The notes under the pieces are model-generated. The model worked only from the letters and a program-made list of their open reading frames with translations. It was not told the DNA's origin and searched no databases. A stretch of DNA of 64,000 bases from Peribolospora baueri. Taxonomy: Eukaryota. Made by a program: the position numbers and the translations under genes. Positions within the stretch are counted from its first letter, which is position 1. Each line of letters begins with the position of its first letter. Location: the NCBI GenBank assembly GCA_029717555.1, contig JAMDHS010000031.1, positions 1 through 64,000 of the forward strand, read 5' to 3'. This document shows positions 23,085-59,365 of the stretch, piece after piece.

Positions 23085-26000
23085 ATGCGTCGCACCGCGG
23101 TGATCGTCGCATCGGCATGGGACGACGATCTCGTCAAGGTCGCCGCCGACGTCGTGCTCAAGCTTGGAGCGCGTATGGATGGCGGCAGAAGCCGTGATGG
23201 GGAGCGAAATGAGCGCGAAGGGGACTCAACCACTGCTGGAACGCAAGAGCGACGAAGCACGTTAAGACCGGAGAAGGAGAGTCAGTACAGGACTGAGTTT
23301 GGCAGATACGTCGATGACGAGTTCGCCCGTAACCTCCTCAGACATGGACTCGATCGGCCGCCCAGCTTGGCACAAAGCCTCGACAACCAGGGAGACAACC
23401 AGCGGGATTTTCTTGGCGCCGACGTTGACTCTTCGTTCGTCAACCGCCTCGTCTCGCCACCTCCGCCTCCACGGCGCTTGTACCCAGTTTCTCTTCCTCG
23501 CATCGACACAAGGCGCGGATCTACCTTACGGGTGTCCTCGGGTTCCGGCCTTCATCTCTCCGCCACGAGTCCTGCGTCCTCAAAGTCCGGGATTTCAAGT
23601 CAAAAGCGAAAGAAGCGGCGCTCGAGAGCCCGCACCAGAGTCATCTGTCTCCACATTTTTGTTCTCCCGCAGCCTGCGCTGCGAGTGAGCCGCGCGCCGG
23701 AATGGGAAGATGCGACCTCGCCGTTTATTGACAAGGCGCGGGAGGCGATAAAAAGGATCAAGGGCCTGGAACGAGGAGCCGGGTGCAAAATCGTGATTAA
23801 GACGGCTCAGCTGGAAACATGGACGAGCGGGAAGAACGAACAGATAGTGCCGGTCAAGATGGACGAGTTGCACGGAGGTATGGGACAGCAGGAGAGCCAG
23901 CTGCAGCGGCGAGGCACCATACGGAGAGCCTCGCACGTAGGCTCGCCAGATCTGCATAATGGCGCTTTCCCCTTCAACTGTCATGGAGACGGCCGTGAGT
24001 CGTGGGAGGCGATCAGGCTCAAGCGGGATGGAACTATCCTCCTTTCTCAGCGACTGGCGGATGCTGGGGACCTTTCGAAGCGCCACGGGATGAAAAAGGT
24101 GAAGCACGTCAGTGGAGCGAAGATGCTAGGCTCCAAGCTCAAGAAAGCCAAGTCCAAAGTGAAGCAGGCCCCTTCGGCGCGATGGCGCCGCTCCGTAGCA
24201 CGCGACGTCCCTTCACCGTTTGCAAACCTCGAGTCTCCTTCCCCTCCTGCCTCCTCCCTCGTCTCACCGTCGTCCGCTCGTGCTGTGATCGGGCGCTTCT
24301 GGCCGACTTGGGCCGCATCCACGGAGAATGGGCTGGCGAAAGCTTATCCTTCGCAACCTCACCACTTTCCCGGTAGTGAAACGGAGCGGAGGGAGCTCTT
24401 CGTCGGCGTGGGTCAGGCGCAGCCAGCGAGGGTATCGGTGTCCAGCGACGTATCGACGCCTGTCGGTTCGTACGGCGATGATATCGCGCGTTCGGCGTCT
24501 TGGTTCGAGTCGACGATGCGGCACGATCTTGAGCGCTCCATCGAGGTCGCCGCTCTAGACCTCACGAACAGGAGCATCTATCGTCGGTCCACCTTGGGGG
24601 CTGGGTCGAAAAGTATCGTGCGCTCAGACGAGGGCGGCACTGACGACGATGAGTGGAACGACGAAGACGAGCCGGTCTCCCCACGTCGACCCGCGTCTCA
24701 GTTGCCATCCCACGTCTCCCGTAGTCACCCGACGTCAATCTCGCCGGTCCTTCTGTCCTCCGCGGATTTGATCGTCCTCGTGGCACCTTCCACTTCGGGC
24801 GACCGTTCAAGGCTGTCTCGAGGCAACTCGCTTGATGAACAGCTCGTGGCGCGACGGACCTGGGGATTTTCCTTGGGCTTTGTCAGCGCCGTTGGGCGAT
24901 ACGTCCTATCAGATGGGGCCAGTCGGGAAGTCAGACTCGAACCTTCGGAGAGTGATTCCCGTGTGCTTGATCCTCGAATGGTCATCTACGTCCCTCCCGA
25001 CATTGTCTCGAATGACGGCCCCAAGGACATGAGCGCGGATCGGACATGGCGCGAGGGGTCGGATGGCGAGCGGAGTCGACCCTTCTCACCCGGGCTAAGC
25101 AAGGAAGCTCGATCTCGACCAAAGTCGGACGTGCCGTCCTTGGCATCTTATTGCACGATCGAAGACGACTACGTCCTCATCCGACCCAGCCATTTCACCG
25201 CAGCCGACGCCACTAAAGCCGATGAGACGACGACGACGCTGCCGTCAGGCATGAAGCTCATCTCAGCTCTGACGGCTTCGGCGAACGCTCGAATGGAACG
25301 TTTGCTAAAGAGCGAACAGCAAGGAGCTTCCGAAGGGCTTCGGCGAGGAGAGATGGCAGGGAACTGGGAAGACGTGAGCCACTCCGAAGATACCCAACTT
25401 GACCCAATGGTTGGGGAGGCTGGCAGACAGCTGGGGAAAGCCACGCCTTCAATGCAACGATGTCAAGGTCAAAGTAGGGCAGGGCCAGGCCATGGACGGT
25501 CCTTCAGCGAAACCAGTTTTGGATCTCCTTACAAGAACAAACCCCTGCCATCACTGCCAAGTAGGACGAGCTCATCCGATATCGTAACCGCGTCTTGCAG
25601 CCGTGAACCGCGGCACAGTCGTTTTCCTCACTCCGCTGGCTTTGGAGCCTCGCAAGGCTGGCCGACCGCGCACTTCGGTCCTTTGCCTTTCTTACCCCAT
25701 TCCACCTATTCGCTCTCGCTATCCGGCCGGTCTCCAGAACAGATCGACCCATTTTCATCATCCGCGGAGGCGGCTTGCTTTGCAACGATGCCGACGCGTG
25801 AGAAAGGCAGTGGAGATGGGAGTCTTCCCTCTTCTTTATCAGCCCTGGAATCCTCAGTCTCGGATTGGGCGCCTGCGTCTACCGCGCCTGCCAGTCTGAT
25901 CAGCGGTGCGGCAGCGTCGAGCCCTCCCGGTCGACCTTGGCGAAATCCCAAGCGGCTACTAGAGCCCCTTGTCGAGGAGTCTCCCTTGTCGACGAGCGAC

Positions 26001-27470
26001 GGTGAAGGGCAAAGCTCGGACACCAAGTTGCCGACCTCTGACGTTCCGGAGAGACGCTTTGTCAGCGTGCAGGTCGTCGACGCCGATGCTATGCAAATCT
26101 TGGAGGCGTGCGGCCAACACTCAACAGAAGAAACACAACCTCGCGCGATGAGCGTGACAAGCTCCCTTACCCGGCAGCATGTCGATCCTGCCATCAGTTC
26201 GAGCCATGAGCTCCCCGGTTTCAGCCCGATCGCCAGAGCTTCTTCAAGATCGTGCATCCTTGGAACTGCTGATGTTGATTCCTCTCCTGGATCTCAAGCC
26301 CCCCAGTCGGCTTCAGGTTCTTGTGTAGCATTGGACCTTGGCCGTGGCTTTACGCCTTTCTCATTCGAAATCGCGGAGCTGGTGGCCTTAATGGAGAAGT
26401 CGTACAGCTCGGGAAAAGAACCGTTCCAGGTCGAGGCGCCGACGAGCCCCCTGCCAAGCGAGCCAGAGCCGCCTTTGGGAGACCATTTGGACTCGCATGT
26501 CCGGCTGGACGTTAGGTCTGGCCAAGAACAGGACGCATTCCTAGCGGCTAGCACAACGCAGCCAGACGCAACGGGGCAAAAACACGCTGAGCATCTGTCA
26601 ACTTTCCAGCCGACGGCGCCAACGAGATCACAAGGCACATGCGCGGCTACGTCGGCCCCACCGAACGATACTTCGGCTGTGCACCCCAGCCCTCTTACCC
26701 GGCGGCCTCTAACCGGTATGACTCGGAGGCCATCTGGGCCGAGACCGCCACTACGCTCGACATCTTCATCGTCGTCGTCTTCGCTCCATCCTCCGGTCGA
26801 TATTCCTTCTCAACGACGGCTCCGCAGATCGCCTTTGTCGATGCTGGCTTCGGATATGAGAAAGTTGGAGGCTACACAATCCTTTCCGCACGAGGCGTCG
26901 CCAGACGACCTGCTCTTCAGGAAGCGCGAGCGGAGCAACAGCAAGGCTACGTCTAACGAATCCACCGGGACCGAGGTTGCCGTGCGGTCTCCCTTGACAA
27001 GGCGCCTGCCCGTGCATCTCACGACCGGCCTTATTCTGCAGGACCGCCCAGCGGTCGAAGAACCCGCTATTTCTCCTCTCTGGTCAGACGCACGCGTGAC
27101 GCTGTCGTCCTCGGAAGTGTACGGTGGATGGCCACGAGACGTCGGCGAGAAGACAGAGGACGGCTTGTCAATCTCGCATTCAACGCTCGAGTCTGATCTG
27201 CAGACTGACTGCTCCATGGTCAATGGCAACGCATCCCGGAGACACTCGAACCCGCCCCCGGTAGCGTCGCCGGTGACGTCAACTGAGCACGCAGTCTTGC
27301 ACGGGATTGTTTCTCGGGAAACTTCGACATCCGGAACGGCGACCACCCTCACCCGCAATAGCAACAGACCCCGAGGCGCCAGGCCGTACATCATGGCTCC
27401 AGTGCGCCCCTCGTCAATGTCGACGACCTCGTCAAGCCGCGAAGATACGGTTCAGCGACTTGCAACTTGA
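23085..27470 (+). CDS. Large, mostly disordered Ser/Pro/Arg-rich hypothetical protein
   Basis: Uninterrupted ~1460-codon ORF, first ATG at 23085. A probable 5'UTR intron lies near 22623-22757. No family recognised. Confidence 0.75.
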   Translation: MRRTAVIVASAWDDDLVKVAADVVLKLGARMDGGRSRDGERNEREGDSTTAGTQERRSTLRPEKESQYRTEFGRYVDDEFARNLLRHGLDRPPSLAQSLDNQGDNQRDFLGADVDSSFVNRLVSPPPPPRRLYPVSLPRIDTRRGSTLRVSSGSGLHLSATSPASSKSGISSQKRKKRRSRARTRVICLHIFVLPQPALRVSRAPEWEDATSPFIDKAREAIKRIKGLERGAGCKIVIKTAQLETWTSGKNEQIVPVKMDELHGGMGQQESQLQRRGTIRRASHVGSPDLHNGAFPFNCHGDGRESWEAIRLKRDGTILLSQRLADAGDLSKRHGMKKVKHVSGAKMLGSKLKKAKSKVKQAPSARWRRSVARDVPSPFANLESPSPPASSLVSPSSARAVIGRFWPTWAASTENGLAKAYPSQPHHFPGSETERRELFVGVGQAQPARVSVSSDVSTPVGSYGDDIARSASWFESTMRHDLERSIEVAALDLTNRSIYRRSTLGAGSKSIVRSDEGGTDDDEWNDEDEPVSPRRPASQLPSHVSRSHPTSISPVLLSSADLIVLVAPSTSGDRSRLSRGNSLDEQLVARRTWGFSLGFVSAVGRYVLSDGASREVRLEPSESDSRVLDPRMVIYVPPDIVSNDGPKDMSADRTWREGSDGERSRPFSPGLSKEARSRPKSDVPSLASYCTIEDDYVLIRPSHFTAADATKADETTTTLPSGMKLISALTASANARMERLLKSEQQGASEGLRRGEMAGNWEDVSHSEDTQLDPMVGEAGRQLGKATPSMQRCQGQSRAGPGHGRSFSETSFGSPYKNKPLPSLPSRTSSSDIVTASCSREPRHSRFPHSAGFGASQGWPTAHFGPLPFLPHSTYSLSLSGRSPEQIDPFSSSAEAACFATMPTREKGSGDGSLPSSLSALESSVSDWAPASTAPASLISGAAASSPPGRPWRNPKRLLEPLVEESPLSTSDGEGQSSDTKLPTSDVPERRFVSVQVVDADAMQILEACGQHSTEETQPRAMSVTSSLTRQHVDPAISSSHELPGFSPIARASSRSCILGTADVDSSPGSQAPQSASGSCVALDLGRGFTPFSFEIAELVALMEKSYSSGKEPFQVEAPTSPLPSEPEPPLGDHLDSHVRLDVRSGQEQDAFLAASTTQPDATGQKHAEHLSTFQPTAPTRSQGTCAATSAPPNDTSAVHPSPLTRRPLTGMTRRPSGPRPPLRSTSSSSSSSLHPPVDIPSQRRLRRSPLSMLASDMRKLEATQSFPHEASPDDLLFRKRERSNSKATSNESTGTEVAVRSPLTRRLPVHLTTGLILQDRPAVEEPAISPLWSDARVTLSSSEVYGGWPRDVGEKTEDGLSISHSTLESDLQTDCSMVNGNASRRHSNPPPVASPVTSTEHAVLHGIVSRETSTSGTATTLTRNSNRPRGARPYIMAPVRPSSMSTTSSSREDTVQRLAT

Positions 27471-28161: not shown

Positions 28162-31100
28162 TCAATAAGGCAACAGTCTCTGCCTTTCCCTGAACTCTCT
28201 CTCGCCTTCACTGTCCTCCGCACCCTCGCCGGCTTCCCGGTCTTCATCAGTCTCTTCCGCTCCTGATGAAGTTTCTTCTTCCCAGCCCTCCAAGAGGGGC
28301 TCCAAGTCGACATGTACCCTCAGTTCCTTTTCGCCCAGCATGTCGTGGAGCGAGCGCAGCTCCGAGCTCGTGAACGTGCCGAGAAGGGGAGGGGAGAAGG
28401 GAAGAATATAGAGTTCTAGGGACGTTGGTATCGAGATGGAAGCCAGAAAGATTAATTGGGATGCCGCCATGTGACGTTGGGTGGTACGAAAACCCGGCCG
28501 GCCAGGACCTCACCTTTGCACCACGGACACTCGCGGATGGCTCGGTAGATCAAGCTTTTGGCACGTGTCAGATGGCCTTGACGCGTTTCAAAGTCTATGT
28601 AGAGCTTCCATACCTCCACTGAAGATTGGACCCTATGCGTCATCGAGCATTGAAAAGAAAGAGATAGGAGAGGCCGGGCGACAGCGTCAGAAATCTTGCG
28701 TAGCCCGCCCGAGCCAGCAGGTCCCGCGGTCTCGACAGTGGTTATGATGGCAGTACTCACCCGCGCTCTTCCACAGCCCTTTCGAACAAGCTCCTGACTG
28801 CGCTCTCGTTAAAACGGTACTGGTCGAGGTGAAGCTCTGCGTAAATGGCGAAAAGCCAAGCCCTGCTGCTCGCGCCCTTCCGCCTGCCGTCGCCACCGCT
28901 CGTATCCATTTCTTGCGCCTTGGTCCTGGCCAACACTCTTTCCTCCAACACCCGTCTCACCCGGCCCTGGACCTTGGTCTTGAGCTCGTTGAAGGCGAAC
29001 AAGCTCAGGAACGCCATGTTGTCGGGGAAGAGGACGATGGCGCGTTCGAGCACGTCGCGCAAGAGGGCTGGACGGAAAGACACGGGCTGCAGAGACGTCG
29101 TGTGTCGGAAGAGAAGTTTGACGTAGGCCATAAATGCCTCCTCCGTCTCAATGCCGGCTGGAATTTCAAGAGTCGACAATGAGCGCAGTCGAGTCTCGTA
29201 CACATCGCAGGCGGCAGGAAGGCCATTAGTGAGGTACTCTAAGAGAGCTGAGCAAAACACGACGTGTCCGGCGTGCCGTGAAAGCGAGTAGGATGTTGTC
29301 TGCGAGGTGAATCCGGCGAGACGACTCTGAAATCTCTGTCTTGCTTTCAAAAGCTGCACGGCCGAAGGCTGGGCCGGATTGTCGCTAAGGAGGTCGTCTT
29401 CAGAGGAATAAATCCCCATATGGAATCAGCTTTCTCGTCCAAGCACTTACAAAGAGGTGAATCGCCGTGGCTCACCATAAGACCCGGCGTCGTCCACTCC
29501 GCTGGCGGCGACCAAAATCGCCCTAGCGCTGCTCTCGCGACCCTCTTCCCACTCCATTTCCGCCCAGACCCGCCAGAGCGCTGGCTCGTCGGCTCGCTTC
29601 TCCTCCGAGAATTGCCGGGACATGGACAACGCGGTGGCGTAGACGGTTCGAGCTCCTTGAAGCTTGCCGGCCTGTCGCTCGAGCCTTGCGTAGGCGTCCC
29701 ATAGGAGCAGGTCTTGTCGAGACGTCTTGAGAAGACGCTTCGCAAGCTTGACCGCCCTGTGACGTCCAAGGCAGGAATCAGGACGGCGGAACCGTACGGA
29801 CCGACGAGAAGGTGCCAGACGACTCACCCCTTTGAGCCGACGGACGCTTCAAACGACAAGTAGGATAGGTCGAAGAAAGGCTCTTGAATGAATGGACGCA
29901 GCTGCTCAAACACATTCCTTCCAAGGCATGCAATGAAGACAGGCAGAAAGAACGTTTCGCCAGTTTTGAGCCAACGAGCGACGGAGAGCTGATGGCCGGC
30001 GGCATAAAGCTCACCTTGCGAACGGGACGTTGACGGTGGCCAAGTCGTCTCTCGTAACGTCCGAGAACCACGGCGTCGGTGATTTTGATGCGATGAGGGT
30101 GTCCACGGCGGTGGGCCAACCCTTGATCGGGCACTCCCACGGTGCCTCCATGCCGCTCTTTCTCTCTCTTTCCATCGGCTCGCCGTCGATGATCTCCCAA
30201 CTCTTGCCTCCTTCGTCTCTGGCCGACCAGAACCGCCGAGAGAGTTGGTGGTTGTACGCCATGGAGGAATGGAGGAAGGCGTCCGTCGTGAACGGCGTCG
30301 TGGTCGGCATCTCCGGAGGAGTGAAGGGCAGGTTGAGAAAGGCGAGCAAGGCGTAGACGAGATGGAGTCGCGGATAGTAGCCGTGCAGTGGGAAGAGCAA
30401 GGAAGCGATGTCGGTGAAGAGAACGGTGCGGTAGGGATCATCTGTCTCGTCATCAATGTCATTGGCGGAGGAGGGCAAGAAAGAGGTCGTGGACCGGGCG
30501 CGTTCGGATGCGGCCCATCGCTCGAACGGGTTGCCGGAAGATACCTCGGCGACTTCCTCGCCCGGCTTGATGGTCGCTTGAGAGGCCGCGTCCCGAGAGG
30601 CAGAGTCATCGTCGCCGCCCTCTTCCCACGCTGCCCATCCCTTCGAGCCTTGCTCGCCGACTCTAGGTCGTTCGGCATTCCAAAACCGCTCTAGGCTTTC
30701 CAGCAAAGCCTCCCTCCACTTTCGGTCTTCCTCCAAACGAGCGTCCGGGCCAGAGTCGGGTACGTATGGTGCGAGTAGGGCTCTAGGCCGGAAAAAGTTG
30801 AGCTCGATAAGTCCCTGCATGAGAGCGATCGCCCTTTCCACATAGCCTGAGCACACAAGCATCACGAGTGAGCTCCAAAGCACAAAATCCATAACGGAGG
30901 GAGGGGGGCGAGACTGACCAGCTTCTTTGAGCATCAAAGCACATCGCACGAGGAGGTAGATCATATTTTCTTCCAGTGTATCCCGGCCTGTTTGCAAACA
31001 GAAATGCCGCGCGTATCAGAGAGCCGCCTACGAGTAGTCCAACCGGGCCGAGTCCCAAACTCACTCGGTGAGGCCCACTGCTCTGCGCCGGCGCGATCTC

Positions 31101-32887
31101 TGAGCTTGCCAATGGCGTCGGCAAAGGTGGCCACGACGGCGTCGACGGCAAAAATGGACCAATCGGTCTGCTTCCACCCGACCCATTCGATCCAAAGCTC
31201 GACGATTTCCGGATGTTCGTCCAACGCGCGGTCCCATTCCTCGTTCAATTTGGACGCGTCCCACAAGCCCGAAGAGGACGCCTCGCGGAGTCTGGCTAGA
31301 ACGAGCACGGGCGAATTGGCGTTGGAAGGGTGGGCGGAGAGGGCGCGTGTGAAGACGTCGAGCTTGATCTCGGCGGCGGCTCGGCGCTTAACCGCTCTTC
31401 TCGCCCTAGCGCCCTCGGTGGTCGTCCTCTTGGCTGCCTTGATGGCCGCCTTACCGCCCTTGTCGGCAGCCAAGCGATCTCCGCCGGAATCTTCGCTGAA
31501 CGAGACGTCGATGATTTCGTCCTGCAAGCGGGCAAGCTCCAACCACGCTTGGACGTCCCCGGGGTCTTCCTTGAGCCTTCGATCCAGGTCACGGTTTCTC
31601 CGCCGTAGAATCTCGTCCCAGCTCTCTCCTTCCTCTTCCTCGCTCTTCTCCGCGTCGCTCTCCGTATCGGAGACAAGCTCTCCAGGTCTCACCACGCCCG
31701 CTATGGACCTATACTCCTGCCCTTCTTCGTGTTCCATCCGTTGGAGAGAGCGAGAGCTCGTAGGAAGGGAGATGAAATCTTGCGCGGGGGACGAGGATCG
31801 GGTGTGGTCCGCTCTCTTGTCAAGACGGACTCGTCGGACGGCTGTGGAATGCGCACGCCATCTTTCCTTTGGATCGATGTATCGGAACACCTGCCGATCG
31901 ATGGACACGCACAAAGACGAAAAGCGGCGGGTGAGCGGAAGCGGGGAACGATGTGGACCGACAGAGTCGTGCTTCGCCGTGACTCACCCTCTTGCCTCCT
32001 TTGACAACCTCGAGCCCGTTACCAGTCTTGGAAGTCTCCTTTGTGATTCTCATACCATCATCGAGGCCCACCACGCGGCCTTGTCCAAGACGATGATATC
32101 TAGGTACCTTGTACCGGTCCAGCGCTCCGTATCGAATATTCAGCTCATCGCCGCGGTTGTCGACGTAGAAGATGGTCGCGTCGGCAGAGATGGCGGACCT
32201 AGTGAGAGATGACGTCGAAGGAGGCCGGCTGGAAGTGGAAGTGGGCGAGAGAGGATGCCGTGCACGGTCTCGAGAGCGTGATCGGTGGCGATGGGATTGC
32301 TGGAAAAAAGGGCGACGATGACGTAGTTGTACGGGTCAAGCTCAAAGAGCGTTTCTTGGTTCTTCGCGATGGCAGCTCACCTTGCGCTCTTCCCTTTCCC
32401 GTCTCCCCCCGCTGGAGTGCCTCTGCCTCGCCGTACCTCGCTCTCCTTCTCTAGAACTGGATCGACTCCGCTTGTGTGACCTGCTCTCCCCCTCCCTGCG
32501 CTCCTTCACTGGCCGGGACGACGTGTGATGGCGAGAACGGTAGTCGTGAGAGCTGTAGCGCACCGCGTCGTTCCCCCCATCGTCCCGCCGTCTTGACGGC
32601 CGCTCTGCTCGCTCCACCGCCTTGCCCTTTCCATGTCGTCGCGCCTTGTCCTCCTCAGCTGCGGGGTCAAAAGAAGAAAAGGATGGAGGGAGGATACGAG
32701 GGCGGGGCTGCGCGTCCGTCTCCGTCAGCCGGACGTGTTCGCCGGCAGCGACGACGGGCCTGAAGGAGGAGAAAGAAGGCGCGATTTTGGTCCGTGAGGA
32801 CTGGACAAAAGGACAAGCAAGGGACGCAAGTACGCGCGTCGTCAGCGCCGAGACGAAAAGCAAAAGCGAGACAAACCGTTCTGACAT
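28162..32887 (-). CDS. NRDE2: NRDE-2/Nrl1 family protein (HAT/TPR-like repeats)
   Basis: N-terminal PSFSSF motifs, then P-x-DV-x-AWL, GY-x-ERA-x-x-x-x-Q-x-x-x-E, FWNAERPRVGE-x-G-x-x-GW, DPYRTVLF-x-DI, LWDAYA-x-LE, CPWCK, EKELR and C-terminal RLLPY*. Multi-exon. Confidence 0.88.
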
Positions 32888-34226: not shown

Positions 34227-35065
34227 AAACAGAAACTGAATCCGGCGGTGCGACTCGGACGGACGACCGACGAGGTGAGACAGCAGGGCGTCGAGGTCGA
34301 CAAGCTTGGCCGACGGACGAGCGAGACCCGAAGGAGCGGCGCGGACGAGCGAGCGAGCGATGGACTGAGCTAAGCTGAGCGGTGTTTGCCTCGACCGTGA
34401 CTGTGATTGTGACCGTCATCATCGTCGCTTCGCATCGCATCGCATCGCCGTCGCTATCGCCGTCGCCGTCCTCGTCGTACGCACGCTTGCTTGCCTGCTT
34501 GCTTGCTTGCCTCACTCCCTACTCGCCCAGCCTTGGCCTCGCTCGCGCTGTCCAAGCGCACCCGTCCGGTGGCTCCCTCGGTCCGGTCGGTTGGTTGGTT
34601 GGTTGGTTGTTTGGTCGGTCGTTCGCCGCCCGCGCTCGCCGGTCGACGTCCCGCTCCGTCTGCCGCTGATCGTTGACCATCGATCGTCCCCACCTGCGCC
34701 GATACGAGACAAGACCAAGCCTCCATCCCCTCCGACCCTGCGAGGCGGCCTGCTCCGCTGTTCTTGGGTGCTCGCAACCGTCGTCTCCTCCTCTCGTGCC
34801 CTCTCCTTCGCCTCTCCCTCGGTTTCATCCGTCCGCCGGGGACAAGCTCGGCGCCAGCTGGCTCTAGTCGGGTACAAACCCTAACAAGGCCATCCATCGT
34901 CTGTCGTCGTCGTCGGCCGTCCTTCTCCTCCTCGCTCCTCGTCCATCATCATCCCAACCACCTCTCAAGGCCATCCTCCATTCCCACCCTTGTCTTCATC
35001 TCCTCCTCCATCTCAACCACACCCCCACCACCTCATCTCACCCCCCATCGCCTCCTCCCGTCCCC

Positions 35066-37507
35066 ATGGACGACGACCGACCCGCCGCCAGCGACCCCAC
35101 CGCCGCCCACCCGAACCGATCATCCCCCCCACCGGGCCTCCGAATCGCCGACCTCGTTGACAAGCACGGACAGCCACCACCCAAGGCCCCACGGTCCTCC
35201 AGGAAGCACCTCCCCTCCTCCACCCCGCCTTCACGTCCGACAGGACGCTCCTCGTCGCCGCCCGTCGCCAGGAAGCCGTCCGCCAGCCGGTCACGGCCCT
35301 CCAAGCCGCCCACCCCGTCCGCCCTCCCCGCCGCCCCTTCCACCGACCTTTCGAAGACCAAGCTCGACGATGGTCCCGCCTACCAGTTTGCCCCAGTCAT
35401 GCAGGTCGTCGAGAACCGCGACCATCTGTAAGTCCAGTCCAGTCCGGTCCTGCCTCGCGCCCCGACCCCGGTCCTCACCGCTCGCCCTCCCCGTCTCCGT
35501 CCTCCCTCGCAGCGAGTACCAGCTCACGATTCGCGAGCAGCCGAAGCACTCTCGCATGTGTGGAGTGGGCGAAAAAGGTGGGCCAGCCGTGCCGCGTGTT
35601 CCTTCTCGCTCGTCACCCACACCGACGTTCTCTCACCCACCCTTCTCGTCTTCCCTCCCCGCAGCCGACCGAAGGCCCATAGACCCCTCGCCCATTATTC
35701 AACTCCGCGTGATCAACCACAACCAATTGCCGACGCCAGGGGAGAGGCCCATGGAGACGTCCAGCGCGCTGCCAGCCACCGGCGACCGTCGATCTTCTCG
35801 TCGCGCCAGCCTCGTCGCGCCGCTGTCCACCTCCGGCCGGCGCGGCACTCCGGTCACTACCTCCGCCGGTCCCGGATGGGAGGACAAGGCGTGGTACCTC
35901 GAGAACCCGTACTACTTCATGTGGGCCTCCCTCGCCCATCCCGACACCGACGAGGAGCTCCACTTGCTCTCCGACGGCAAGACGAGATACACAACGGGCA
36001 GCTCGGTAAGCTGCCTCTACCACCTCACCGACATCGATGGCTCCCAGCAGGGCTTCTTCGTCTTCCCCGACCTCAGCGTCCGTGTCGAGGGCACCTACCG
36101 CCTCAAGCTTAGCCTCTTTGAGACCATCGGCCGCGACATTCATCACCTCAAATCCGTCTACTCTGTCCCCTTTCATGTCTTTACCGCCAAGCGCTTTCCC
36201 GGCATGGAAGGTGGGTGCCACATCCAAAGGTGGCCGGGGGCAATCGACGATACGATCGATCGATCGGTCGTCCATCCAACGTGGACGACCGTTCGTCGAC
36301 CGGAGAAAACGCTACCGCTCGCCGGGCCTGCTGTGCTGACCATGCGATTTTTCTCCTTTCAGAATCCACCCCGCTCTCGCGTGCCTTTGCAGATCAGGGC
36401 CTCAAGGTGCGCGTGCGGAAACATCCGCGGATTCGCGTGCGTGACGACAAAGGCGAGGTCATCACGGACGACGATGATGAAGACGAGGACGACGGCGGCG
36501 GCGGCGACATGGAAGTGGAAAAACCGCCGGTGAAAAAGGCGGCAAAGCGAAGGAAAAGCGCAAGGTCCACGGCCGCACTCGGAATGTCCAAGCTCCAGCT
36601 GCGCGCCAGCCCGGCCCTCAGCACCAGTGGCACGTCCGCCTCGGCCGACCGGCGTCCCAACGGGCAGGGTTATGCGCCAGCCACGCCGGCCACCGCGTCG
36701 TCCTCGTCGCAGAGGACGACGCCGGTCGCAGCTGGTCGGCCGGAGGCAACAGCCGCCGTCGAACCACGATGGGTCGGCTCGTCCGGCGGTGTCGTCGTGC
36801 ACCCGCCGCCCTACGGCCATCCTCCTCCGCCCCCGCTTTCTCACGCTCCCGTCCACCATCGGCCCTTCCATGTCCCCGTGCCGCGCTCCTACGTCGGCCC
36901 TTCTCAGCGGTACGAGCCGGCGGATCGTCAATTCTCTGCGCCCCATTCCACCTACAACCCCGAGCCCTACTATCCGCCTTCCGAGCCTTTTTACGGCGGC
37001 CCTGCTGACCCGCACGCCCAACCGCCGCCGCCGTACTACCGTCCGCCGGCGCCGTCTCACGCCGTCTGGTCACCGTCTCCCATTCGTCCGATGGCGATGG
37101 TCGCGTACGAGCACGCCCGTCCGCCGTCGGCGCCACCGTCGATGCGGGAAGCACCCTCGTCGATGCGAGAAGCGCCGCCACCGTCGTACCCGTCCGCCAC
37201 CGCCGCGCCGCCGCACCCGGCCTATGCCCCAGCCGCCGCCGCCGAGCCGCCCTATTATCCCCATCCCCATCCCCATCATCCCCGACCAGAATCTCCCTAC
37301 CCGGCGCTGCCGCAGCGGCCAGAGTCTCCTTACCCTACTCGGCCAGGGTCCCAAGGGTCGTCGTCGGATCGCTACTTACGAGCTCGCCCCCCGCCCCCGC
37401 CGCCGCTGCTCCAACGCCCTTGGTCCCCCCCGCCCTCCGAACCCGTCCGCCGACCTCCCCCTTCGCGCCTGCAGCAAACCACCGCGCCGCCACCCCCGCG
37501 GGAATGA
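35066..37507 (+). CDS. Velvet-domain transcriptional regulator with Pro-rich C-terminus
   Basis: Approximate exons 35066-35427, 35513-35577, 35664-36210 and 36363-37507. Y-x-L-x-IREQPKHSRMCG-x-G, DRRPIDP-x-PIIQL, FFVFPDLSVRVEGTYRLKLSLF, F-x-VFTAKRFPGMEESTPLSRAFADQG-x-KVRVRK. Confidence 0.95.
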
Positions 37508-48573: not shown

Positions 48574-50475
48574 GGAGGACCTGGGAGGAGACGCTGAGGA
48601 CCGTCCTTCACTTCCAAGAAGTGTGGCACGCGTCTACACGAATGGTTATGTGTACCGACGACACCGATGGTGAATTGCATGCAGATGGTAGCGACGTAGT
48701 GACTGGCTGTTCCCTCCGTCCCTTTTCTTTCGTATTGTCGTCGACGTCGCGCTCGTCTGTACGGCACGTCATGAGGAAGGGAGGGCCTGCTACAGTCAAC
48801 CCTGTCTATAAGCATAAGAGTTGTGTAGCCCGAGTGCTATGCAATATGCGGGAGGTTGACTACCCAGAGGGGTCTATGCATATTTGCCGCAGTCGTTACA
48901 GTCGATAGCGTCCATCAAGACATGAATTCCAAGCTTTACTATAGAGTATGTACACGTCATAACACAACCATGTTCAAGAAGAAGCGGGTGCAGAAAAGAA
49001 CTATCGAAGATCGGTTTGTTTACGCTGCTCGTTGACATGTTCTTTGAAAGAGATGGTGAAACGCGGACAAGCACCCACGTGTAGTAATGTTAGAACTGAC
49101 GTGCATGGACGGAAGTGTATGTTACTGGTTCGTTGTTGTTAATGAGAGCATACAAAGAGGAAAACCGCAGTAACGCCGTTTGCCTACACAGTCATGTCCG
49201 CTTTCAGCCGCGTAACCAAGGTGCACGTGACCCTCAACCCTAACTATGCATGCCGAGGGCGCATAACTGGTAAGGATGTCAGTGCTATGCAATATGCGGG
49301 TATGCCAGCTTGCATATAGACCGGTATTTTGGCTGGGAGCAGTCAATTTTTGGCTGGGGACAAGCGGGAAAAGGAGATCGCTATACACATGGACCCATAT
49401 GCTGACAGACATGGTTGACTGTACCTCGCTCTCTCTGCCTTGAGGCTCTGCTCCATCGACCGTGGGACGTTGAGCGAGCGGAAAAAAAGGACGCCCTGGC
49501 GCGGCCCACTAGTGTTTTGGAATTTGAGCCGGCGGCACTCGCTTCGCTTCTGCTGCGGGCCCTTCCCATTGTTGCGTCTCTTTATAGTCCCTCTAGGCTG
49601 TTCACGGCCTGTATATACGGACTTGCTAAGCGGATTAATCCATCCATCCATCCATCCAACATGGAGCACGAAGACGAGGATCGCTTCTTTCGGGAGCGTG
49701 TCGACACGCGCAGCAGCAAGGCGAGAGTATCTCGGCCCCTGTCCAGTCGGACGTCTGAATATCCGCTCAGGGGGCGAAGATCGGCCTCAAAACGCCGCCC
49801 CGGCATCAATCACGCCAGCATTTTAGTATTTGGTCGGGACAACGATCCAAGGTAAAACACAAAGTGTAGAAAACGCCGTGCAAGGTCGGCAAGCGAGCGC
49901 GGATGCCGGCCTATGAGCTAGCGTGGACGCCGGCCTATGTGCATGCGCCGCCATTCCCGCCGTTCGCTCCGTTTTGTGGCGACGTCAAGATCCGATGGAT
50001 CGGGTCAGGCACGCCGGTGGGGACGAGATGCGCGCCCACCCGCTGGCCCGCCCGCTCCCCGTCGTCCATCTCCACGACGCCGACGCCAGCGTTTTTTTTT
50101 TCGGGACGAACGTAGAGGCTCGTTGGAAAGGCCAGAACTTTTGCGCCCTTCGGTCTCGCCGGCTCTTTTTTGGGACGCACCGGCATGGAACTGGAATGGA
50201 CCAAGACACGTCGTCGTCCCCAACGCTACGCAAGCCGTCCCGCCGTCGCCCGCGGGCATAAAGGGAGGACCTCAGACAGCTTCAACGTCCTCTTTGATCT
50301 TCATCCCATACCGTTCCTTTCACCTTCTCCCGAGCCGGGCTCGTTTCTTGTTGTGGCCTTTTTGCTTTTTCGACTGCAGCCGGACTGCTTCACCACTTCT
50401 TTTTTTTTTTTTTTTTTTATCTTGGGACCTTCTCTACCGCGCCCTTAATCTCAGTCACACTCCCTTCTGTTGACC

Positions 50476-51360
50476 ATGGTCACCTTCAGGAAGGTCGCGT
50501 TCGCCATCGCGGCCGCGGCCGTCGCTCTTGTTGCCCTCCCTCAGGGCCCTGCCAACGCCCTCACCATCCCGGCTAACGTTCGGTTTGAGCGTGCCCTTGC
50601 TCAGAATGACGTCGTCGGCGTTCGCGCCGTCGCCGAGATGGACAATCTCCCCGAATACGTGCCTCGCTTCGTTGAGGTGAGTAAGGCGGCTCGCTCGTCA
50701 TTCAGACCGTCCGTCGGTCGCGTCTTACGGCTGGGGCTCATTCGTCGGACATCTCCGCATTCTGCACGCTGCTTCCACCAGACTGTCGATGGAATGGAGA
50801 AGAGAACGTACCCAACGCCTCCGAAGGTGGACGGTCTGGTCGAGGAGAAGCGGTGGCTCCACGTGAACACCTCCGACCACGGCGGCGAGCACGGCGATAG
50901 GCCCCCCCCTGCTCCTATCCGCGAGACGTTCCCTCACCGTCCCTTCCGTCGCGCCCTTGGCGAGGTGGACGGTCTGGTCGAGGAGAAGCGGTGGCTCCAC
51001 GTAAACACCTCCGACCACGGCGGCGAGCACGGCGATAGGCCCCCCCCTGCTCCTATCCGCGAGACGTTCCCTCACCGTCCCTTCCGTCGCGCCCTTGGCG
51101 AGGTGGACGGTCTGGTCGAGGAGAAGCGGTGGCTCCACGTAAACAACATCACCGGCCACGGGGCGGGTCACGGCGATGTGGCCCCCGCTTCTGTGACTCG
51201 CGTTCATGCGTTCGGTGCTAACGCGAGGGAGATCTCTGGTGACCGTCCCTTCGGTGAGTTAGTCGACTCGCTTGTTAATGGAGTCGTCGGTCGCGTCTTA
51301 CGACTGGAGCTCACATTCATCGTGCATCTGCGTCCACAAAACACCCCATCAGACTCTTGA
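50476..51360 (+). CDS. Secreted KEX2-processed repeat protein (KEP-type peptide precursor)
   Basis: Signal peptide MVTFRKVAFAIAAAAVALVALPQGPANA. Exons 50476-50676, 50782-51253 and 51353-51360 (226 aa). Three VDGLVEEKR|WLHVN units plus an MEKR site. Confidence 0.85.
   Translation: MVTFRKVAFAIAAAAVALVALPQGPANALTIPANVRFERALAQNDVVGVRAVAEMDNLPEYVPRFVEVSKAARSSFRPSVGRVLRLGLIRRTSPHSARCFHQTVDGMEKRTYPTPPKVDGLVEEKRWLHVNTSDHGGEHGDRPPPAPIRETFPHRPFRRALGEVDGLVEEKRWLHVNTSDHGGEHGDRPPPAPIRETFPHRPFRRALGEVDGLVEEKRWLHVNNITGHGAGHGDVAPASVTRVHAFGANAREISGDRPFGELVDSLVNGVVGRVLRLELTFIVHLRPQNTPSDS
50827..51143 (+). repeat. 138-bp coding tandem repeat, two near-identical copies plus a partial third
   Basis: Units start at 50827, 50965 and 51103 (GTGGACGGTCTGGTCGAGGAGAAGCGGTGGCTCCAC). 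The only difference noted between copies 1 and 2 is a synonymous GTG/GTA. Confidence 0.95.
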
Positions 51361-52580
51361 AGAACGGCGTTGGGTTCCGATGCTTTCCCCGATCAATGAG
51401 ACCGCAGAGGACGGAACGAACCCCGCCAAGTTCGTGCCGGGACAGGAACAGGGATCGTCACGGGCGGAGGCCAGGGTCCCCTACAGGTGATTCGCCGGAC
51501 GGGACCACGGCGAGTGTGGGCGGAAGACGTTAATGAGTCTCGATTAAAAATAATCTAAAACTTCGATTGCTATAATATTAATTTTCGCAATCGCTCATTA
51601 TAACGCGAGGACGGTCGGAAATCTAATTAAGGAGATGTAGGTGGGAAGAAAGTGGACGACGTTGTCCACGGGCGGCGTTTTTAGGCAGGACAAGCCCGCA
51701 CTAGCCGCGGTCGGCCGCTGTCATGACGGTGATCTACCGAGATGACGGAGCCTAGGGCCCTCAGATGCCGCTTCATGTCCCCATTTGAAATATGGATTCC
51801 TCTAGACAGAGCCAATGCACGCAACGGGGCAGGCGAGTCAATGTGAGCCAAGGCTCACAGTGATCGTGTCTCGAATCGGCCAGGTCAATCTTTGTCAGTC
51901 TGTCTAGTCTATGTTGGCAGCCAGGCGTGGGGCGTGGGCGTGTTCCGTCGTGTTGGAGAGGACACGAGCAGGGCTGAACTTGATAGCTCAGCCCAGTTCA
52001 CAACGAGCCTGGCTCGAGCAAACGAACGACGAAAGCCGATTGCGATGGTGGGTATTGGCGCCGTAATGCAACCTCATCGCCGAGAACGATGGATAATGGA
52101 TCGGAAGGAAGGAGGACGTTGAAAGGCGTTCAGCCGGTGACACGGAGGCCGAAACTCAAGCTGGCCGGACCGCGATGCGGACGGGTCGGAGACGTCTCGG
52201 TACATGAGCGCCCATGCAAATGTGGGCCTTGTGCACGTCCCAGCGTTTGCTTCCCTTGTCCGTCAACCTCGCACGGCGCAAAGAGGACGAAGGACGGCCG
52301 ACGGTGTCTCTTCTTCTTCTTCGCCCGTCGGCCGTCGCGTTCGCGTCGTCGTCGTGCCCGCAAGATAACCTTGGCAGCTGCGGCAAGCCTCCTCAGATCG
52401 CTGATCGCGCTCCCCCCTCGTCGGCGTGTGCACTCCATTGTCGACCGACGGGGAGGACGACATACCCTACACGTTCTTTCCCTTCTTATTAGCGAGGTCA
52501 ACCCCCCTTAGGCGGATTGCTTTTTTACCATCTCATCCGCCGTACGACCCCTTCGATCTGCACCTTTCCGTCGAGCAACC

Positions 52581-54966
52581 ATGGTACCGGAGACGCCGGC
52601 CGACGACGTGGGGCGACCATCCGGCGACCTGGACGGCAAGCCGAGATCGTCGGTGGACGATAACGGTGGGCATTCTCTTGTCCCACTCCCGTCATGCGCA
52701 TTCCTTTTTTTTCTGTCTCCACGGGCATGCGTGCGGAGGTCGATCGGTTCGGGCGATCTTTTTTGCAAGTCTGACCGCACCTTTTTGCTCTCTTCTTTTT
52801 ATTTTTATTTTTTTCCCTTCGGCGATCGCCAGACGATGTCAACTCACGGAAGAGAGAGCGGGAGGGATCGGTAGAGGTGACGACGCCGAGGGTCAGTCGA
52901 CTGCTGGACGGCCGACGTGAGAAACTGAGATGAGGATGCCTGCTGACCTTTCGTCTCCGTCCCCAACGCGACCGTCAGGGCGGCATCACGGACGAGGCCA
53001 AGGCAATGGGCTTGCCTGCGAAGAAGAACCGCCGAGCGATGAGCTCTTCGGAAGCGCAGCCGGTCGCTCCTACTCCTTCGCGACCGTCAGGAGCTGCCGA
53101 GACGGCGATTCGGATTGCTCCGGTAGAGGAGGAGGAAGAGACGGGGGCCAAGGACGACGAGGAGGGGAGCGACGAGGGCGCGGAGAAAGCAGAGCAGGAC
53201 GCTGGGAGGCAAGCGAACGAACAGTTGTCTGAGGAGCCTTCCGAGAAGAGCGACGCCGATGGCGAGGCTCCCGCCAATGAGACGGCCAAGGTCCAGCAGA
53301 TCCGTGAAAAGGTGCAGGAGATGGGATGGGAGGAGGGAAAGGAAGCGGAGAAGAGAGCGGCCGAGGAGGAACCGGCAGAGACTGGGTCTAAGAAGCCCAA
53401 GAGCACTGCGGTGGGTATTGTTTCCCGCCTGTTTCGTATCTGACGTCTGACCCGGAGTCCCGTTCGCTTCTATGCTCTTTCCAGAAATCTTTCGCCGATT
53501 ATGCATCAATGCCCTCTCCCCTCCTTTCCGCTGCCCCAGCCAAGTCCTCCGCTTCGGAAACCTCGTCCACGTCGACCAAGTCATCCTCGCTCGGGTTTGC
53601 CGCCTTTGCAAACGTACAATCTCCTTTCCTCGCCGCCGCTGCCAGGAACGCGGGCAGCAAATCTTCGTCGGACCAAGCCGTCCCGATTGGGGATAAGGCG
53701 GAGGACAAGACCAAGAACTCTCCAACATCACCTCCGTCATCAAACACGCAAACCCCCTCGTCCACCTCTTCCCTTCTCCCACCTCACCCCACCCCCGCCC
53801 TCGGTACCTCACCCGGAAGCTCCGCATTCCGACCTGCCCTCGGCACCACGATGGCGCCCATAACCGGCGGCTTTGCAGCTTTTGCCGGCGCTTCGCCCTT
53901 GTTGAAAGCGACAGCGGGTGCGCGGAGTTCTAGTCCGTTCGCTGCTGCAGCTCCAAAGACGGCGGAGGAAAAGGAGAAAGAGGGAGAGAGGTCAGAGGAG
54001 CTTCAGACGGAGGAAGAAGACGAGAAGAGGAAGTTCCGGGAGAAGCTCGTGGAAAGAGAGCGTGCGTGCTTTCAGTCGGAAGTGTTCTCGAGAACGCGCA
54101 GACGATCTGTCACCGGTGAGCTGACCATTTTCTTCGTCTCTTTTCGCTCATCTTCTCGCCCGGGCCAGTCGTCACTGGCGAGGAGTCAGAGATGGTGGTG
54201 GAATCGTTGCGGGCCAAGCTATACATCATGGGTGAAGGACAGGCTTGGAAGGAGCGCGGAACGGGCACCGTGAGGCTGAACGTCCAGAGGGATGGCTCGA
54301 GGCGGGCAAGACTAGGTGAGCGAGCGAGATCTGTGCAACACGGCGTCCGGAGGGAAAGTCACTGGTTCGCTTCTGACGTTCTCTCATATCCTCTTGGCGA
54401 GTAGTGATGCGCTCCGACGGCGTCTTACGTGTCATCCTCAATGCTCCCCTCTTTGCGGGCATGTCGTGCGAGCTGGTGCAGGAACGGTACGTTCGCATCA
54501 TCTCCATTGAAGAGGGACAGCTTGTCCACTTTGCTATCAAGGTGAGCCATCGTCGGGCCTCCGCATCCTTGCTCCAATGCGGTTCTGATTCTCCGCTGAA
54601 TCTTTTTCTTCCGTTTCCCAGGCCTTCAACGCTCAGTCTGCGACGGCTCTGTACGATGCTATCCAGGATTACATCCCGCTCGAATCTGCCTCCAAGACTC
54701 CGACACCCGCGCCGACGTCTCCGCCGGGCGCCGGGGGGAATGGCAGCGAGGAGAGGGATGGGCAGGACGTGGAGAAGGGGGGAGAGAAAAAGGACCACAA
54801 GAATGTGAAGGCGGGCAAGGACAAAGGGGATGACGAGAGGCTGAAGAAGGAGATCCAAACGGATGGGGATGAGGAAGACGCAGAGGAGGGCGAGCAAGAC
54901 GGAGAGAATGATGTGGACGAGGGCGAGCAAGACAGAGAGAAGGATGTGGACGAGGGCGAGGACTGA
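52581..54966 (+). CDS. Ran-binding-domain protein (Yrb2/RanBP3-like)
   Basis: RKREREGS and PAKKNR basic motifs, GFAAFA (FG-like) repeats. RanBD reads VTGEE-x-E...RAKLY...WKERGTG-x-VRLN...RL|VMR-x-DGVLRVILN. Acidic repeated tail ends at 54966. Confidence 0.85.
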
Positions 54967-56163: not shown

Positions 56164-56682
56164 GCTTGAGTGTTTGTTTGGCTGCCGGTGGGTTGGGAGA
56201 AAGAACAAAAGGGCTTAAGAGGGCGTTGTGTGACTGCTGGCTGGGCGTAGTGGTTTCGGGCGTTACAAGCTTGCTCTGATATGTGGAGTGCTGGCGTGTG
56301 GAAACCAACTACGGCCGCAATTAGGCCGCCCGTGCCACGTTCTGGGTCGGCGATCCATGTCCAAGTGCACCGCGGGGGCCGAAGCGCTGGCGCGGGCGTC
56401 ATCTGACGGGAAGGAATGCATGGACGGAAAGAGCTAATTACGTGTGAGGCGGAGAACCGACGGTGGAACGTAACATCGAGCGACCGAGAACCAAGATCTT
56501 CTTGACCGGCGAAATACCGCTCGCCGCAGAGGATCAGAAAAACATCGACGAATCCTACCGACCGCAAGGGCGTGTTTGTTGATAAATGTACAAGAATGCA
56601 GATATATGGAAGATATTGTCTTCAGCGGACGGTCGAGCAAAGCAAGAAGACAGGCGAGAGAGGACGGAAGGAAACCGTCTAT

Positions 56683-59365
56683 CTATGCCGTCGGGGCGGA
56701 GATGGCAGTGGCACCGCGCCGCTGGTAAAATAGCTGATAGGCTTTGCAAGAGAGCACGTCGGAGAGGGAGGCGCGCGTGACCTTGTCGTCGTCAAAACAA
56801 TACCACTGCGGCCAAGGAAGGGGAGGAAAAGGTGAGACCGGTTGACGAACTGATCTGTTCTGACCCAGTGATGATGGAGACCCACCTCGTCCTTCCACTT
56901 TGTAAAGTTGGTATAATGGCCAGTGTTCATGCTGCCCTCGTGAACGACGACCGAAAAAAGGTCATAGACGTACCCAGCCGTCGCGTCACTGCCGTCGTCC
57001 TCCTCTACGCCTACGCCGTTGGACCCGCCGCCGCCGGTCCTAGACCTGTCTTCGCGAACCCACGGGGTGCAGAAGGGTCGCATATCGAGGCGGAGAGGGA
57101 AGCGGACGCGAGTGTCGATCTTGACGGACGAGGTCGTGTGCTCGAAACGCTGCCGCGTGAGAATATCGGCAGGACGCCACGACGATCAGTCGCGGTCGAT
57201 CGGACCAGACCGTCGCCGCCCGCTCACCTTCAATTGGATACTGAGAACCATGGGCAGCTTGCGAAGGCTCAGCTGCTTGGTGGCCTGAGCAGAGTTGGTT
57301 CCACACTTGGCACAGGCATATGCCTTGGTCGAGAGCGCCTCTGGCGAGGTGTACCTGGGGACGGGAGACGGACAGACAGAAAGGTCAACGACGGAACGGG
57401 GGTTGATGAGTTCGCGAAGGAGAATCCGGCTCACCTCATCAAGCAGCCCATCAAAGTGCCTTCCTCGCTCGTCCCGCCGTCCCCTCCCGCTTCCTTGGCA
57501 TCCTTTTTCACGTCTTTGCTTCTTTTCTTCCCCTTTTTTGCCTCAACCGCCCCCTCATCCTTGCCGTCAGCGCCTTTCTTCTCCGGGCGTACGTCCAAGC
57601 TGATGTCCAACAACGGATCCCTCACGCTCGTCACGTTCCCACAACGCCCGCAACGCACGTCACTCTGCAGCTGTCCGCAAAAAGTTGCGTGTACGGGACA
57701 AGGACAGAGGTTGGGTGGCGTCTCGGCTCGAGAAAGTGGTCGAGGGTCATCGCTGTCGCCGTTGCCATTCGCTGTTCCGCTGCTATCTCTCCGCCGTCGA
57801 GTCCTCGGCCGAATGCCGGGGATGCGATGGCCAGAGCGCTCGAAACCCGAATGCATAGCGTCGAGTGCTGAGATGAAGAGCTCGTGCGCGTCGTGCTGCG
57901 CGTATCCCGTGCTAAGCTCTGATGCTTCTCTGGCCGTCCACATCGAGTAGAGGAAGGTAGTGGGTGCAAAGGCGAGGGGAGCTGGCTTGGACTCGTCAGT
58001 TCTGGCGTAGAACTGTGAGGGAAGAAGAGAAGTTAAGTCAGAGGCCCTCCCCGCACAAATACCTCACGTCGACACACTCACCTCAGATACCACGCGATCC
58101 ATCTCGCATGCTACGCATCCCGAGACGCCGCACAGCTCCGGGTTGTGTCCGTCGCCGAGAAAGAAGTTGCGCAAGGGAGGGTTATGAAGGAAAGACTGGA
58201 TGATGACATTCAGATAGCAGGTGTTGCCAAGGTTCCGCAAACCGCGAGGAGCTGAACAAGCGGGGAAGCAAGTGAGTCGGAGGTCAGTAGGATGCCCGTA
58301 TGATTGCGTTCGATAATAGAGCGGAGGCGTACTCACCGCGGCAAGACAGAGCGGAATCGTTGACAGCAAAAATCTTATCAGGGTCCTCTTCCGCGCTGCG
58401 CTTCTTACCCTTGTCCTTGTCCCTGCCTGCATTCTCCTCCGGAGGAGTGCGCCGGCCGTTAGTGGCAGAGGTGAGGGAAGCCTCGAGCTCCTTGCGCAGC
58501 GCTCGCTCAAAGCGCGCATCGTATACAATATCATCGCAGGCCGAGCAGAAGAGCGCGCCAGTGGTCATGTCCACGGCTGCATAATGACAGAGGAGGCAAA
58601 GAAGAGGAGTAGCGCGTCAAGCCATCGAGCACTATGAGACTCTCTCTTCTCGCCAGATCCCTTCCGGTCATTGCCAATTTTCACTCACCAAAGCCAAGTC
58701 CATCGTGATCGTCCGCAAGATGTTCTCCAATATGACCTCCCTTCCAGCAGGCGGTGAAGGCGCAGGTTAGACAGAGGAACGGTTGTTGCAGCGTCTTGCC
58801 ACACTTTGGGGTCATACAGGCCGGGTGAGGGAGCTACACGATAACACAGGGAAGAAAAGAAGACGAAAGAGAGGAAAAAAGCATGACGATAACGACATAT
58901 TTGTGAGCGGTTGTCACCAAGTCAAATCGGCGATCGACCTCGCCGCGCCGTGTCTGTCACAATCACACTGACCTTTCCGTCCTTGTTAGACAGCGGCGTG
59001 CCGTCCTCCGCCCAATGGCCAGCACCGGTGCGCATGCCACGTACAACCCTGACGCCCCACCGTATGGCCGCCTTGTACCGAGAGAGCAGGGTCAAGAGAT
59101 GTGCGGGCGTTGTGCCTTGCTCCGATGTGCCCGCCTCGCCCTCGCTCTCGGGCTTGCGGGCGAGAAGATGCCGGCAGCCGATCGCGATGGGACGATGGGA
59201 TGACGATGAAGCGGAAGAGCTTGGCGTGGGCACAACCGTACTGTCTCCGACCATCGCAAGTGCGCTCTCCGTCTCGTCGCCGCCGATGCCGGGGCCCTTG
59301 CCGAGCTCGCCGGATGATGCGGTGGACGGGTGGGCCGCCGTCTCTGCTTGCGGGCCGGGTGACAT
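56683..59365 (-). CDS. UBP8: Ubiquitin-specific protease Ubp8/USP22-like (ZnF-UBP plus USP domain)
   Basis: ZnF-UBP exons (CLTCAFTAC, FCSACDD), Cys box GLRNLGNTCYLN, QHDAHE, His box VVVHEGSMNTGHY, WYCFDD, AYQLFY. Confidence 0.9.

Follow-up and report, generated by a model that had tools for sequence, protein, structure and literature searches.

A candidate Kex2-processed repeat protein of Peribolospora baueri and the W-L-H start of its predicted peptides

An open reading frame of 294 codons lies at positions 50476–51360 on the forward strand of the 64,000-nucleotide stretch of Peribolospora baueri DNA analyzed here (contig JAMDHS010000031.1, positions 1 to 64,000; in the following, the window). 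A preliminary description had read this frame as a secreted precursor from which Kex2- and Kex1-type processing would release 31-residue peptides starting with W-L-H, a Cu(II)- and Ni(II)-binding ATCUN motif unmasked by cleavage. Two questions arise: whether such a precursor is encoded at this locus, and whether metal binding is what its peptides are for.

Gene structure and layout of the precursor

The raw frame reads in frame through two introns, both of the form GTGAGT...CAG, at 50677–50781 (105 nt, phase 0) and 51254–51352 (99 nt, phase 1). The frame first described does exist, but with these introns removed the precursor would comprise 226 residues and not 294. We infer the splicing from a paralogue elsewhere in the genome, whose homologous intron 1 (112 nt) starts with an in-frame stop codon and therefore must be spliced. 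Exon 1 (coding part 50476–50676, forward strand as for all features of this gene) would encode a signal peptide, judged from hydropathy to span about residues 1–20 or 1–28, and a pro region; it is 81% identical to exon 1 of the paralogue. Exon 2 (50782–51253) carries the peptide cores and spacers, and by default splicing the coding end of exon 3 (51353–51360) adds D-S-stop. A TATA-like box, CATAAA at 50257–50262 (TATAAA in the paralogue), lies in a promoter and 5′ UTR common to both genes. Further upstream, a motif at 50130–50175 is also found at the paralogue locus (L003:810–859), where it occurs twice in the promoter; it is possibly a regulatory element.

The two introns are homologous, with an alignment score of 65 compared with a maximum of 26 in 500 shuffles, and intron 2 is in addition 83% identical over 112 nt to an intron-like stretch in the 3′ UTR of the paralogue, past its stop codon. 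The homology of introns 1 and 2 suggests that the gene grew when a module of intron plus exon was duplicated. Beyond the second acceptor a phase-0 frame of 45 codons (51353–51490) begins with T-L-E-E-R-R|W, and the corresponding frame of the paralogue with I-L-E-R-R|Y. This frame is out of frame under the default splice; skipping of exon 2 would use it. The stretch might possibly be an alternative last exon, encoding another peptide module, or a relic exon.

The layout of the precursor is directly visible and bears out what had been described: an open frame, a hydrophobic N-terminus (Kyte–Doolittle peak of 2.85 with an 11-residue window, at most 0.95 after residue 30), three occurrences of EEKR|WLH, two identical cores and a variant third. 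Six KR/RR sites divide the spliced precursor into seven fragments, and a tandem unit of 138 nt is present in 2.6 copies within the frame (TRF score 637); this layout of repeats and dibasic sites is far beyond chance. Three acidic spacers ending in EEKR, at 50806–50853 (after MEKR), 50953–50991 and 51091–51129, each precede a core. Cores 1 (50854–50952) and 2 (50992–51090) are 31 residues long, start with W-L-H, contain four histidines and an N-T-S sequon and end in HRPF followed by RR; core 3 (51130–51253) is a variant of 43 residues with an N-I-T sequon, its final two residues coming from exon 3. The 31-residue core has a GRAVY of −1.22, with seven hydrophobic residues, six prolines and no tyrosine, and its calculated net charge is −0.9 at pH 7 and +2.2 at pH 5.5. 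In every core the N-glycosylation sequon adjoins the W-L-H site, and the matching stretch of the paralogue has none.

Copies 1 and 2 differ at only one of 138 nt, synonymously. When each position p was compared with p+138, the bases agreed across 50825–51007 (183 nt) except for one synonymous base, which delimits a recently homogenized tract (50825–51145) spanning the spacer plus W-L-H-V-N in all three copies. The His3 codons of the three copies thus lie in one recently copied tract and therefore represent a single event that counts once. A separate contig of 214 nt (C619, L002) consists of the repeat unit only and matches the array with one mismatch; its unit junction is not present in the window array, which suggests an additional, collapsed copy or a different allele.

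Paralogues, searches for relatives and the repeat patch in copy 3

The genome search returned three family members, namely the window gene, a paralogue on contig C110 (L003:1176–1875) and a distant gene on contig C95 (L006:1220–1785). The C110 paralogue is a direct observation; it encodes 195 residues when spliced and has a single W-L-N payload. Promoter, 5′ UTR, exon 1 and intron 1 are common to it and the window gene (77% identity over 687 nt), and the 65 codons compared in exon 1 show 12 non-synonymous and 8 synonymous differences. All four cores, the three of the window gene and that of the paralogue, agree in VDGxVEEKR|WL and in an internal His-Gly. Position 3 of the paralogue peptide is Asn, one base away from His, beyond about 20 residues the payload cannot be aligned, and the Lys/Asp-rich tail contains a short tandem KDDWTKK repeat and no array like that of the window gene. 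The third secreted gene, of 149 residues as modelled, has only the ALTIPA..ERAL pro piece in common with the others; it contains LSAR sites, and its C-terminal half is rich in Pro and has two PPPYSP motifs. The two genes have different housekeeping genes as neighbors (velvet, NRDE-2, a RanBP1 domain and ubiquitin hydrolase in the window; translin, aminopeptidase P and RTP1 around the C110 paralogue), and neither synteny nor a common cluster was found between the window and the 30 kb around this paralogue. The comparison argues for a constant signal and pro region combined with a payload that is swapped between paralogues. That His3 is the conserved point of the system was not supported: lack of His3 conservation among homologues, a refuting outcome named in the preliminary description, applies to the only close homologue found, which has W-L-N (His3 kept in 0 of 1 independent homologue), and the three His3 go back to one recent copying event. 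A single paralogue does not give the direction of the change, gain in the window gene or loss in the paralogue.

Outside the genome no credible homologue was found, in collections that are sparse in unannotated fungal genomes and lack three of the window's own proteins. The whole open reading frame had no homologue at E ≤ 1 among 8000 candidates, and exon 1 aligned against longer proteins matched none of 8000. A phmmer search with exon 2 against 1.84 billion representatives gave one match, a leafhopper repeat protein (pairwise E 7e-5), which we rejected as a homologue because the match is repeat-inflated and the protein has neither a signal nor the dibasic layout. The ESM Atlas held no usable match to the precursor, metagenome scans confirmed 0 of 598 and 0 of 199 candidates, Pfam at E ≤ 10 returned only sub-threshold noise and no antimicrobial family, and PDB at E ≤ 10 returned nothing. 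The gene thus appears to be a lineage-specific orphan sequence.

The tail of copy 3 is not the product of simple drift. At 51191–51240 it contains, in frame and on the forward strand, the 5′ end of a dispersed non-coding LTR-like repeat: 51191–51237 is 91% identical over 47 nt to non-coding DNA elsewhere in the genome (E about 1e-10). With one repeat locus as query we obtained 12 genome matches spread over 10 places, of which 9 lie outside the window (loci L013–L021 and L023; contigs C616, C635, C317, C208, C21, C33, C25, C164 and C88). The repeat starts with TGTGAC, ends with ...CAACA, contains a 5′ hairpin and a TATA-like run and is 142–226 nt long in the six of nine copies for which both ends were found; in these six no target-site duplication was seen by eye. 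The patch in the window begins at the 5′ end of the repeat and scores 40–74 against the nine copies, compared with 14–23 for unit 1. Five loci carrying the repeat gave no Rfam match, and "solo LTR" is a guess as a label. A fragment of this repeat encodes part of copy 3, where the frame is kept across the patch (net +27 nt). In the flanks of two of the copies (L014, L019) there is a second shared repeat, 83–98% identical over 40–120 nt.

Processing machinery and class of the gene

A Kex2-like gene is present on contig C659. Its product has S8 and P domains, finds kexin as best PDB match (E 2e-72) and is 79–85% identical to Kex2 proteins of Ustilaginomycotina (Tilletia maclaganii 85%, Violaceomyces 83%, Thecaphora frezii 81%, T. 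indica 79%), in a ranking that leaves out three fused agaric models which come top by repeated domains at 70–72% identity. The nearest named relatives being Ustilaginomycotina, we therefore regard the organism as a smut-type fungus. S10 carboxypeptidase matches occur on four contigs and are candidates for Kex1. With both kinds of enzyme encoded, the proposal of a secreted precursor that undergoes Kex2/Kex1-type processing to 31-residue peptides appears sound. Glutamate at P3/P4 of the EEKR site may slow Kex2. Variants with tryptophan at P1′ belonged to the better-secreted ones when Kex2 was screened in Pichia (PMC10135057).

Kex2-processed repeat proteins (KEPs) have been delimited by a signal peptide without a transmembrane segment, a minimum of four fragments on cleavage at KR/RR, a set of three or more similar fragments making up at least 15% of the protein, and a Kex2 protease in the genome (Le Marquer 2019, PMC6339444). 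For the window gene hydropathy alone, with its one N-terminal peak, indicates a signal peptide without a transmembrane segment. Cutting gives the seven fragments described above; the three spacers, and likewise the two cores with the C-terminal variant, are similar as judged by alignment and not by FIMO, the cores amounting to 3 × 31 of 226 residues. Together with the protease on C659, these features identify the locus, as far as sequence can tell, as a real gene of a described class.

KEPs are numerous, with 7878 counted and 2560 of these without homologues (Umemura 2020, PMC7329392); linear peptides from KEPs were detected in basidiomycetes (Vogt 2022, PMC9769878), and longer peptides are typical of yeast-like Basidiomycota (PMC6339444). 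The window gene resembles other KEPs in its signal peptide, its KR/RR-delimited repeats, its orphan sequence and the absence of a nearby DUF3328 gene. It differs in a core that matches nothing found, in having two dibasic sites per unit, so that the acidic spacer would be released separately, and in the xxH start. The earlier statement that the system was not recognizable as described is consequently correct in that no described homologue exists among the sequences searched, but its architecture is that of the KEP class.

No cyclization gene was found near the window gene among the frames scanned. DUF3328 (PF11807) had no match in 220 window frames of at least 120 aa and 124 shorter frames at 42–60 kb, no window frame scanned matched tyrosinase, and a genome-wide DUF3328 search gave zero matches, as did its control search. 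A dikaritin or ustiloxin-type RiPP was therefore rejected, the window frames scanned lacking DUF3328 (UstYa) and the 31-residue core lacking Tyr. The Pfam matches of the window contain no metal-transport or oxidase family; they include GH43 (8013–9125, reverse strand), UDP-glucose:glycoprotein glucosyltransferase (14645–19473, forward), NRDE-2 (29450–31983, reverse), a velvet factor (34677–36530, forward), a RanBP1-domain protein (54120–54401, forward) and a ubiquitin hydrolase (56682–58564, reverse). An open frame of 1474 codons at 23046–27467 (forward) has no Pfam match at E ≤ 0.001.

Possible roles of the secreted peptides

The best explanation, and in our opinion a fairly probable one, is a fast-evolving interface KEP of the Rsp1 kind in which the ATCUN motif is incidental, the role being assigned by analogy. 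The 226-residue precursor would enter the ER, each core would probably be N-glycosylated at its sequon, Kex2 would cut after KR/RR in the late Golgi and a Kex1-type carboxypeptidase would trim the RR, so that the secreted products would be one variant peptide and multiple copies of a 31-mer that is linear, hydrophilic and rich in His and Pro. Signal, pro region and the VDGxVEEKR|WL spacer may be regarded as a constant expression cassette common to the paralogue, while the payload would turn over fast by point changes, tandem amplification and a patch of repeat DNA. Most likely the product is an extracellular peptide at a host or microbe interface comparable to Rsp1 of Ustilago maydis, whose dose would be raised by copy number, and which, given a free N-terminus, would bind Cu(II)/Ni(II). 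Rsp1, Rep1 and Hum3 of U. maydis are smut secreted repeat precursors with Kex2 sites; Rsp1 has 260 residues and hydrophilic repeats, and its function is given as unknown (PMC4617103). The window gene differs from these in that no sequence match was found and only two to three copies are assembled. Rep1 and Hum3 have amphipathic, surface-active repeats, in contrast to the hydrophilic, Pro-rich core, and a Rep1-type repellent was rejected on the GRAVY, hydrophobic and proline counts given above.

The alternative closest to the original proposal is that cleavage-gated Cu(II)/Ni(II) chelation by W-L-H and the internal HG-x-x-HGD, masked until the Kex2 cut, is the selected function, the peptide scavenging or buffering extracellular copper. 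We find this doubtful. W-L-H after KR does fit the ATCUN definition Xaa-Zaa-His (not Cys; Zaa not Pro), as had been stated, and no Ste13 X-A/X-P trimming signature follows EEKR. For ATCUN peptides the log K of Cu(II) binding is 12.3–15 at pH 7.4 (PMC8640992). Any Xaa-Zaa-His peptide binds, however, and binding in the test tube is therefore expected and silent on function. Taken alone, the xxH start is not beyond chance, which also counts against the chelation reading: in a six-frame translation of the window xxH follows 103 of 3349 dibasic sites (3.1%), and by simple scaling about 240 of the 7878 catalogued KEPs would be expected to have such a start. In favor of chelation are the four histidines of each core, the fact that the amplified form is the H3 form, and the persistence of His9 and His13 in the section of copy 3 that has diverged at 8 of 30 nt, with His9-Gly also kept in the C110 paralogue. 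The HG-x-x-HGD cluster, said to be kept in the diverged copy, is indeed the better-kept feature, but not significantly so (P about 0.13). Asn3 of the paralogue, the single origin of the three His3, the absence of metal-related families from the window's Pfam matches and a sequon at Asn5 that could place a glycan beside the site all argue against it. To sum up, the ATCUN reading is chemically valid and biologically weakly supported.

There are precedents for metal sites of this kind. In hepcidin-25 an N-terminal ATCUN is freed by furin (PMC9779829), which means that a metal site unmasked by cleavage already had a described counterpart. As in the window gene, Xaa-Zaa-His is freed there by a Kex2-family convertase and its biological role is unsettled; unlike the window gene, hepcidin-25 is an animal, single-copy, disulfide-rich hormone, and there is no homology. 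The Saccharomyces cerevisiae alpha-factor, an Xaa-His peptide, also binds Cu(II) at its N-terminus (cited in PMC8640992). The open-access literature searched yielded no fungal KEP that starts with an ATCUN motif; its catalogue tables carry no legible sequences, and such a protein may be catalogued unremarked.

A recent trait of this one gene is a likelier reading of His3 than a conserved purpose. If gained recently, His3 might nevertheless be the novelty on which selection acted and which drove the tandem amplification. Carried further, a recent Asn-to-His change would have built the ATCUN in front of the older HG-x-x-HGD, and selection on the site would have driven the amplification; the product would be a glycopeptide with several copper-binding sites that only the Kex2 cut in the late Golgi would arm and that strips or buffers copper at the host surface, and the payload would change when splicing used the relic last exon instead. 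We consider this chain of events unlikely.

An antimicrobial role, for a His/Pro-rich peptide that is cationic at acid pH and acts via copper-driven oxidation or in the manner of proline-rich peptides, seems distinctly improbable. The charge shift between pH 7 and pH 5.5 would suit it, and apidaecin polyproteins are built as well from repeats of peptide, RR and acidic spacer, with a Pro/His/Arg C-terminus in which P-H stands at the same positions of PRPPHPRL as in the core (PMC11549390). Apidaecins are, however, confined to insects, cationic and conserved in PRPPHPRL with its critical penultimate Arg (PMC11549390). This Arg is Pro in the core and only two of eight pharmacophore positions match; with no Pfam match either, an apidaecin-type peptide was rejected. 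More generally the core, close to neutral at pH 7, differs from cationic ATCUN antimicrobials; it is strongly hydrophilic and rich in Pro, and it matched neither a Pfam antimicrobial family nor a PDB entry at E ≤ 10.

It is very unlikely that the peptide is a pheromone- or hormone-like ligand whose constant W-L N-terminus addresses it to a fungal receptor. The alpha-factor is a peptide of 13 residues with His at position 2. Like the window gene it stems from a fungal multi-copy Kex2 precursor and starts with Trp; unlike it, it requires Ste13 trimming and has a known receptor. The invariant W-L after KR would fit a ligand but may merely ride along with the cassette, and the linear, multi-copy layout with no cyclization genes nearby agrees with the proposal of KEPs as fungal hormones (PMC6339444). 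Against this, 31 residues exceed the 9–24 of alpha-pheromones and basidiomycete mating is served by a-type pheromones (PMC6339444). An alpha-type pheromone precursor was rejected on this length and on W-L in place of X-A/X-P after KR.

Least probable is a young or decaying gene without selected function, a duplicated cassette with a drifting payload hit by a mobile-element fragment. The orphan sequence, the repeat-derived patch in core 3, the codon differences in exon 1 and the out-of-frame module after intron 2 speak for it; against it, the frame is open over all copies and the patch, and canonical splice sites, promoter and dibasic sites are kept in both paralogues.

As a KEP the window gene is one more orphan among the thousands catalogued. 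It would also be a natural example of a constant secretion-and-cleavage cassette whose payload is swapped and amplified and into which DNA of a mobile repeat has been recruited. If the metal reading were true, the product would be a peptide secreted by a fungus with a copper site that becomes active through Kex2, a case we have not found in print, and KEPs, for the most part proteins of unknown function, would gain a testable role in competition for metal.
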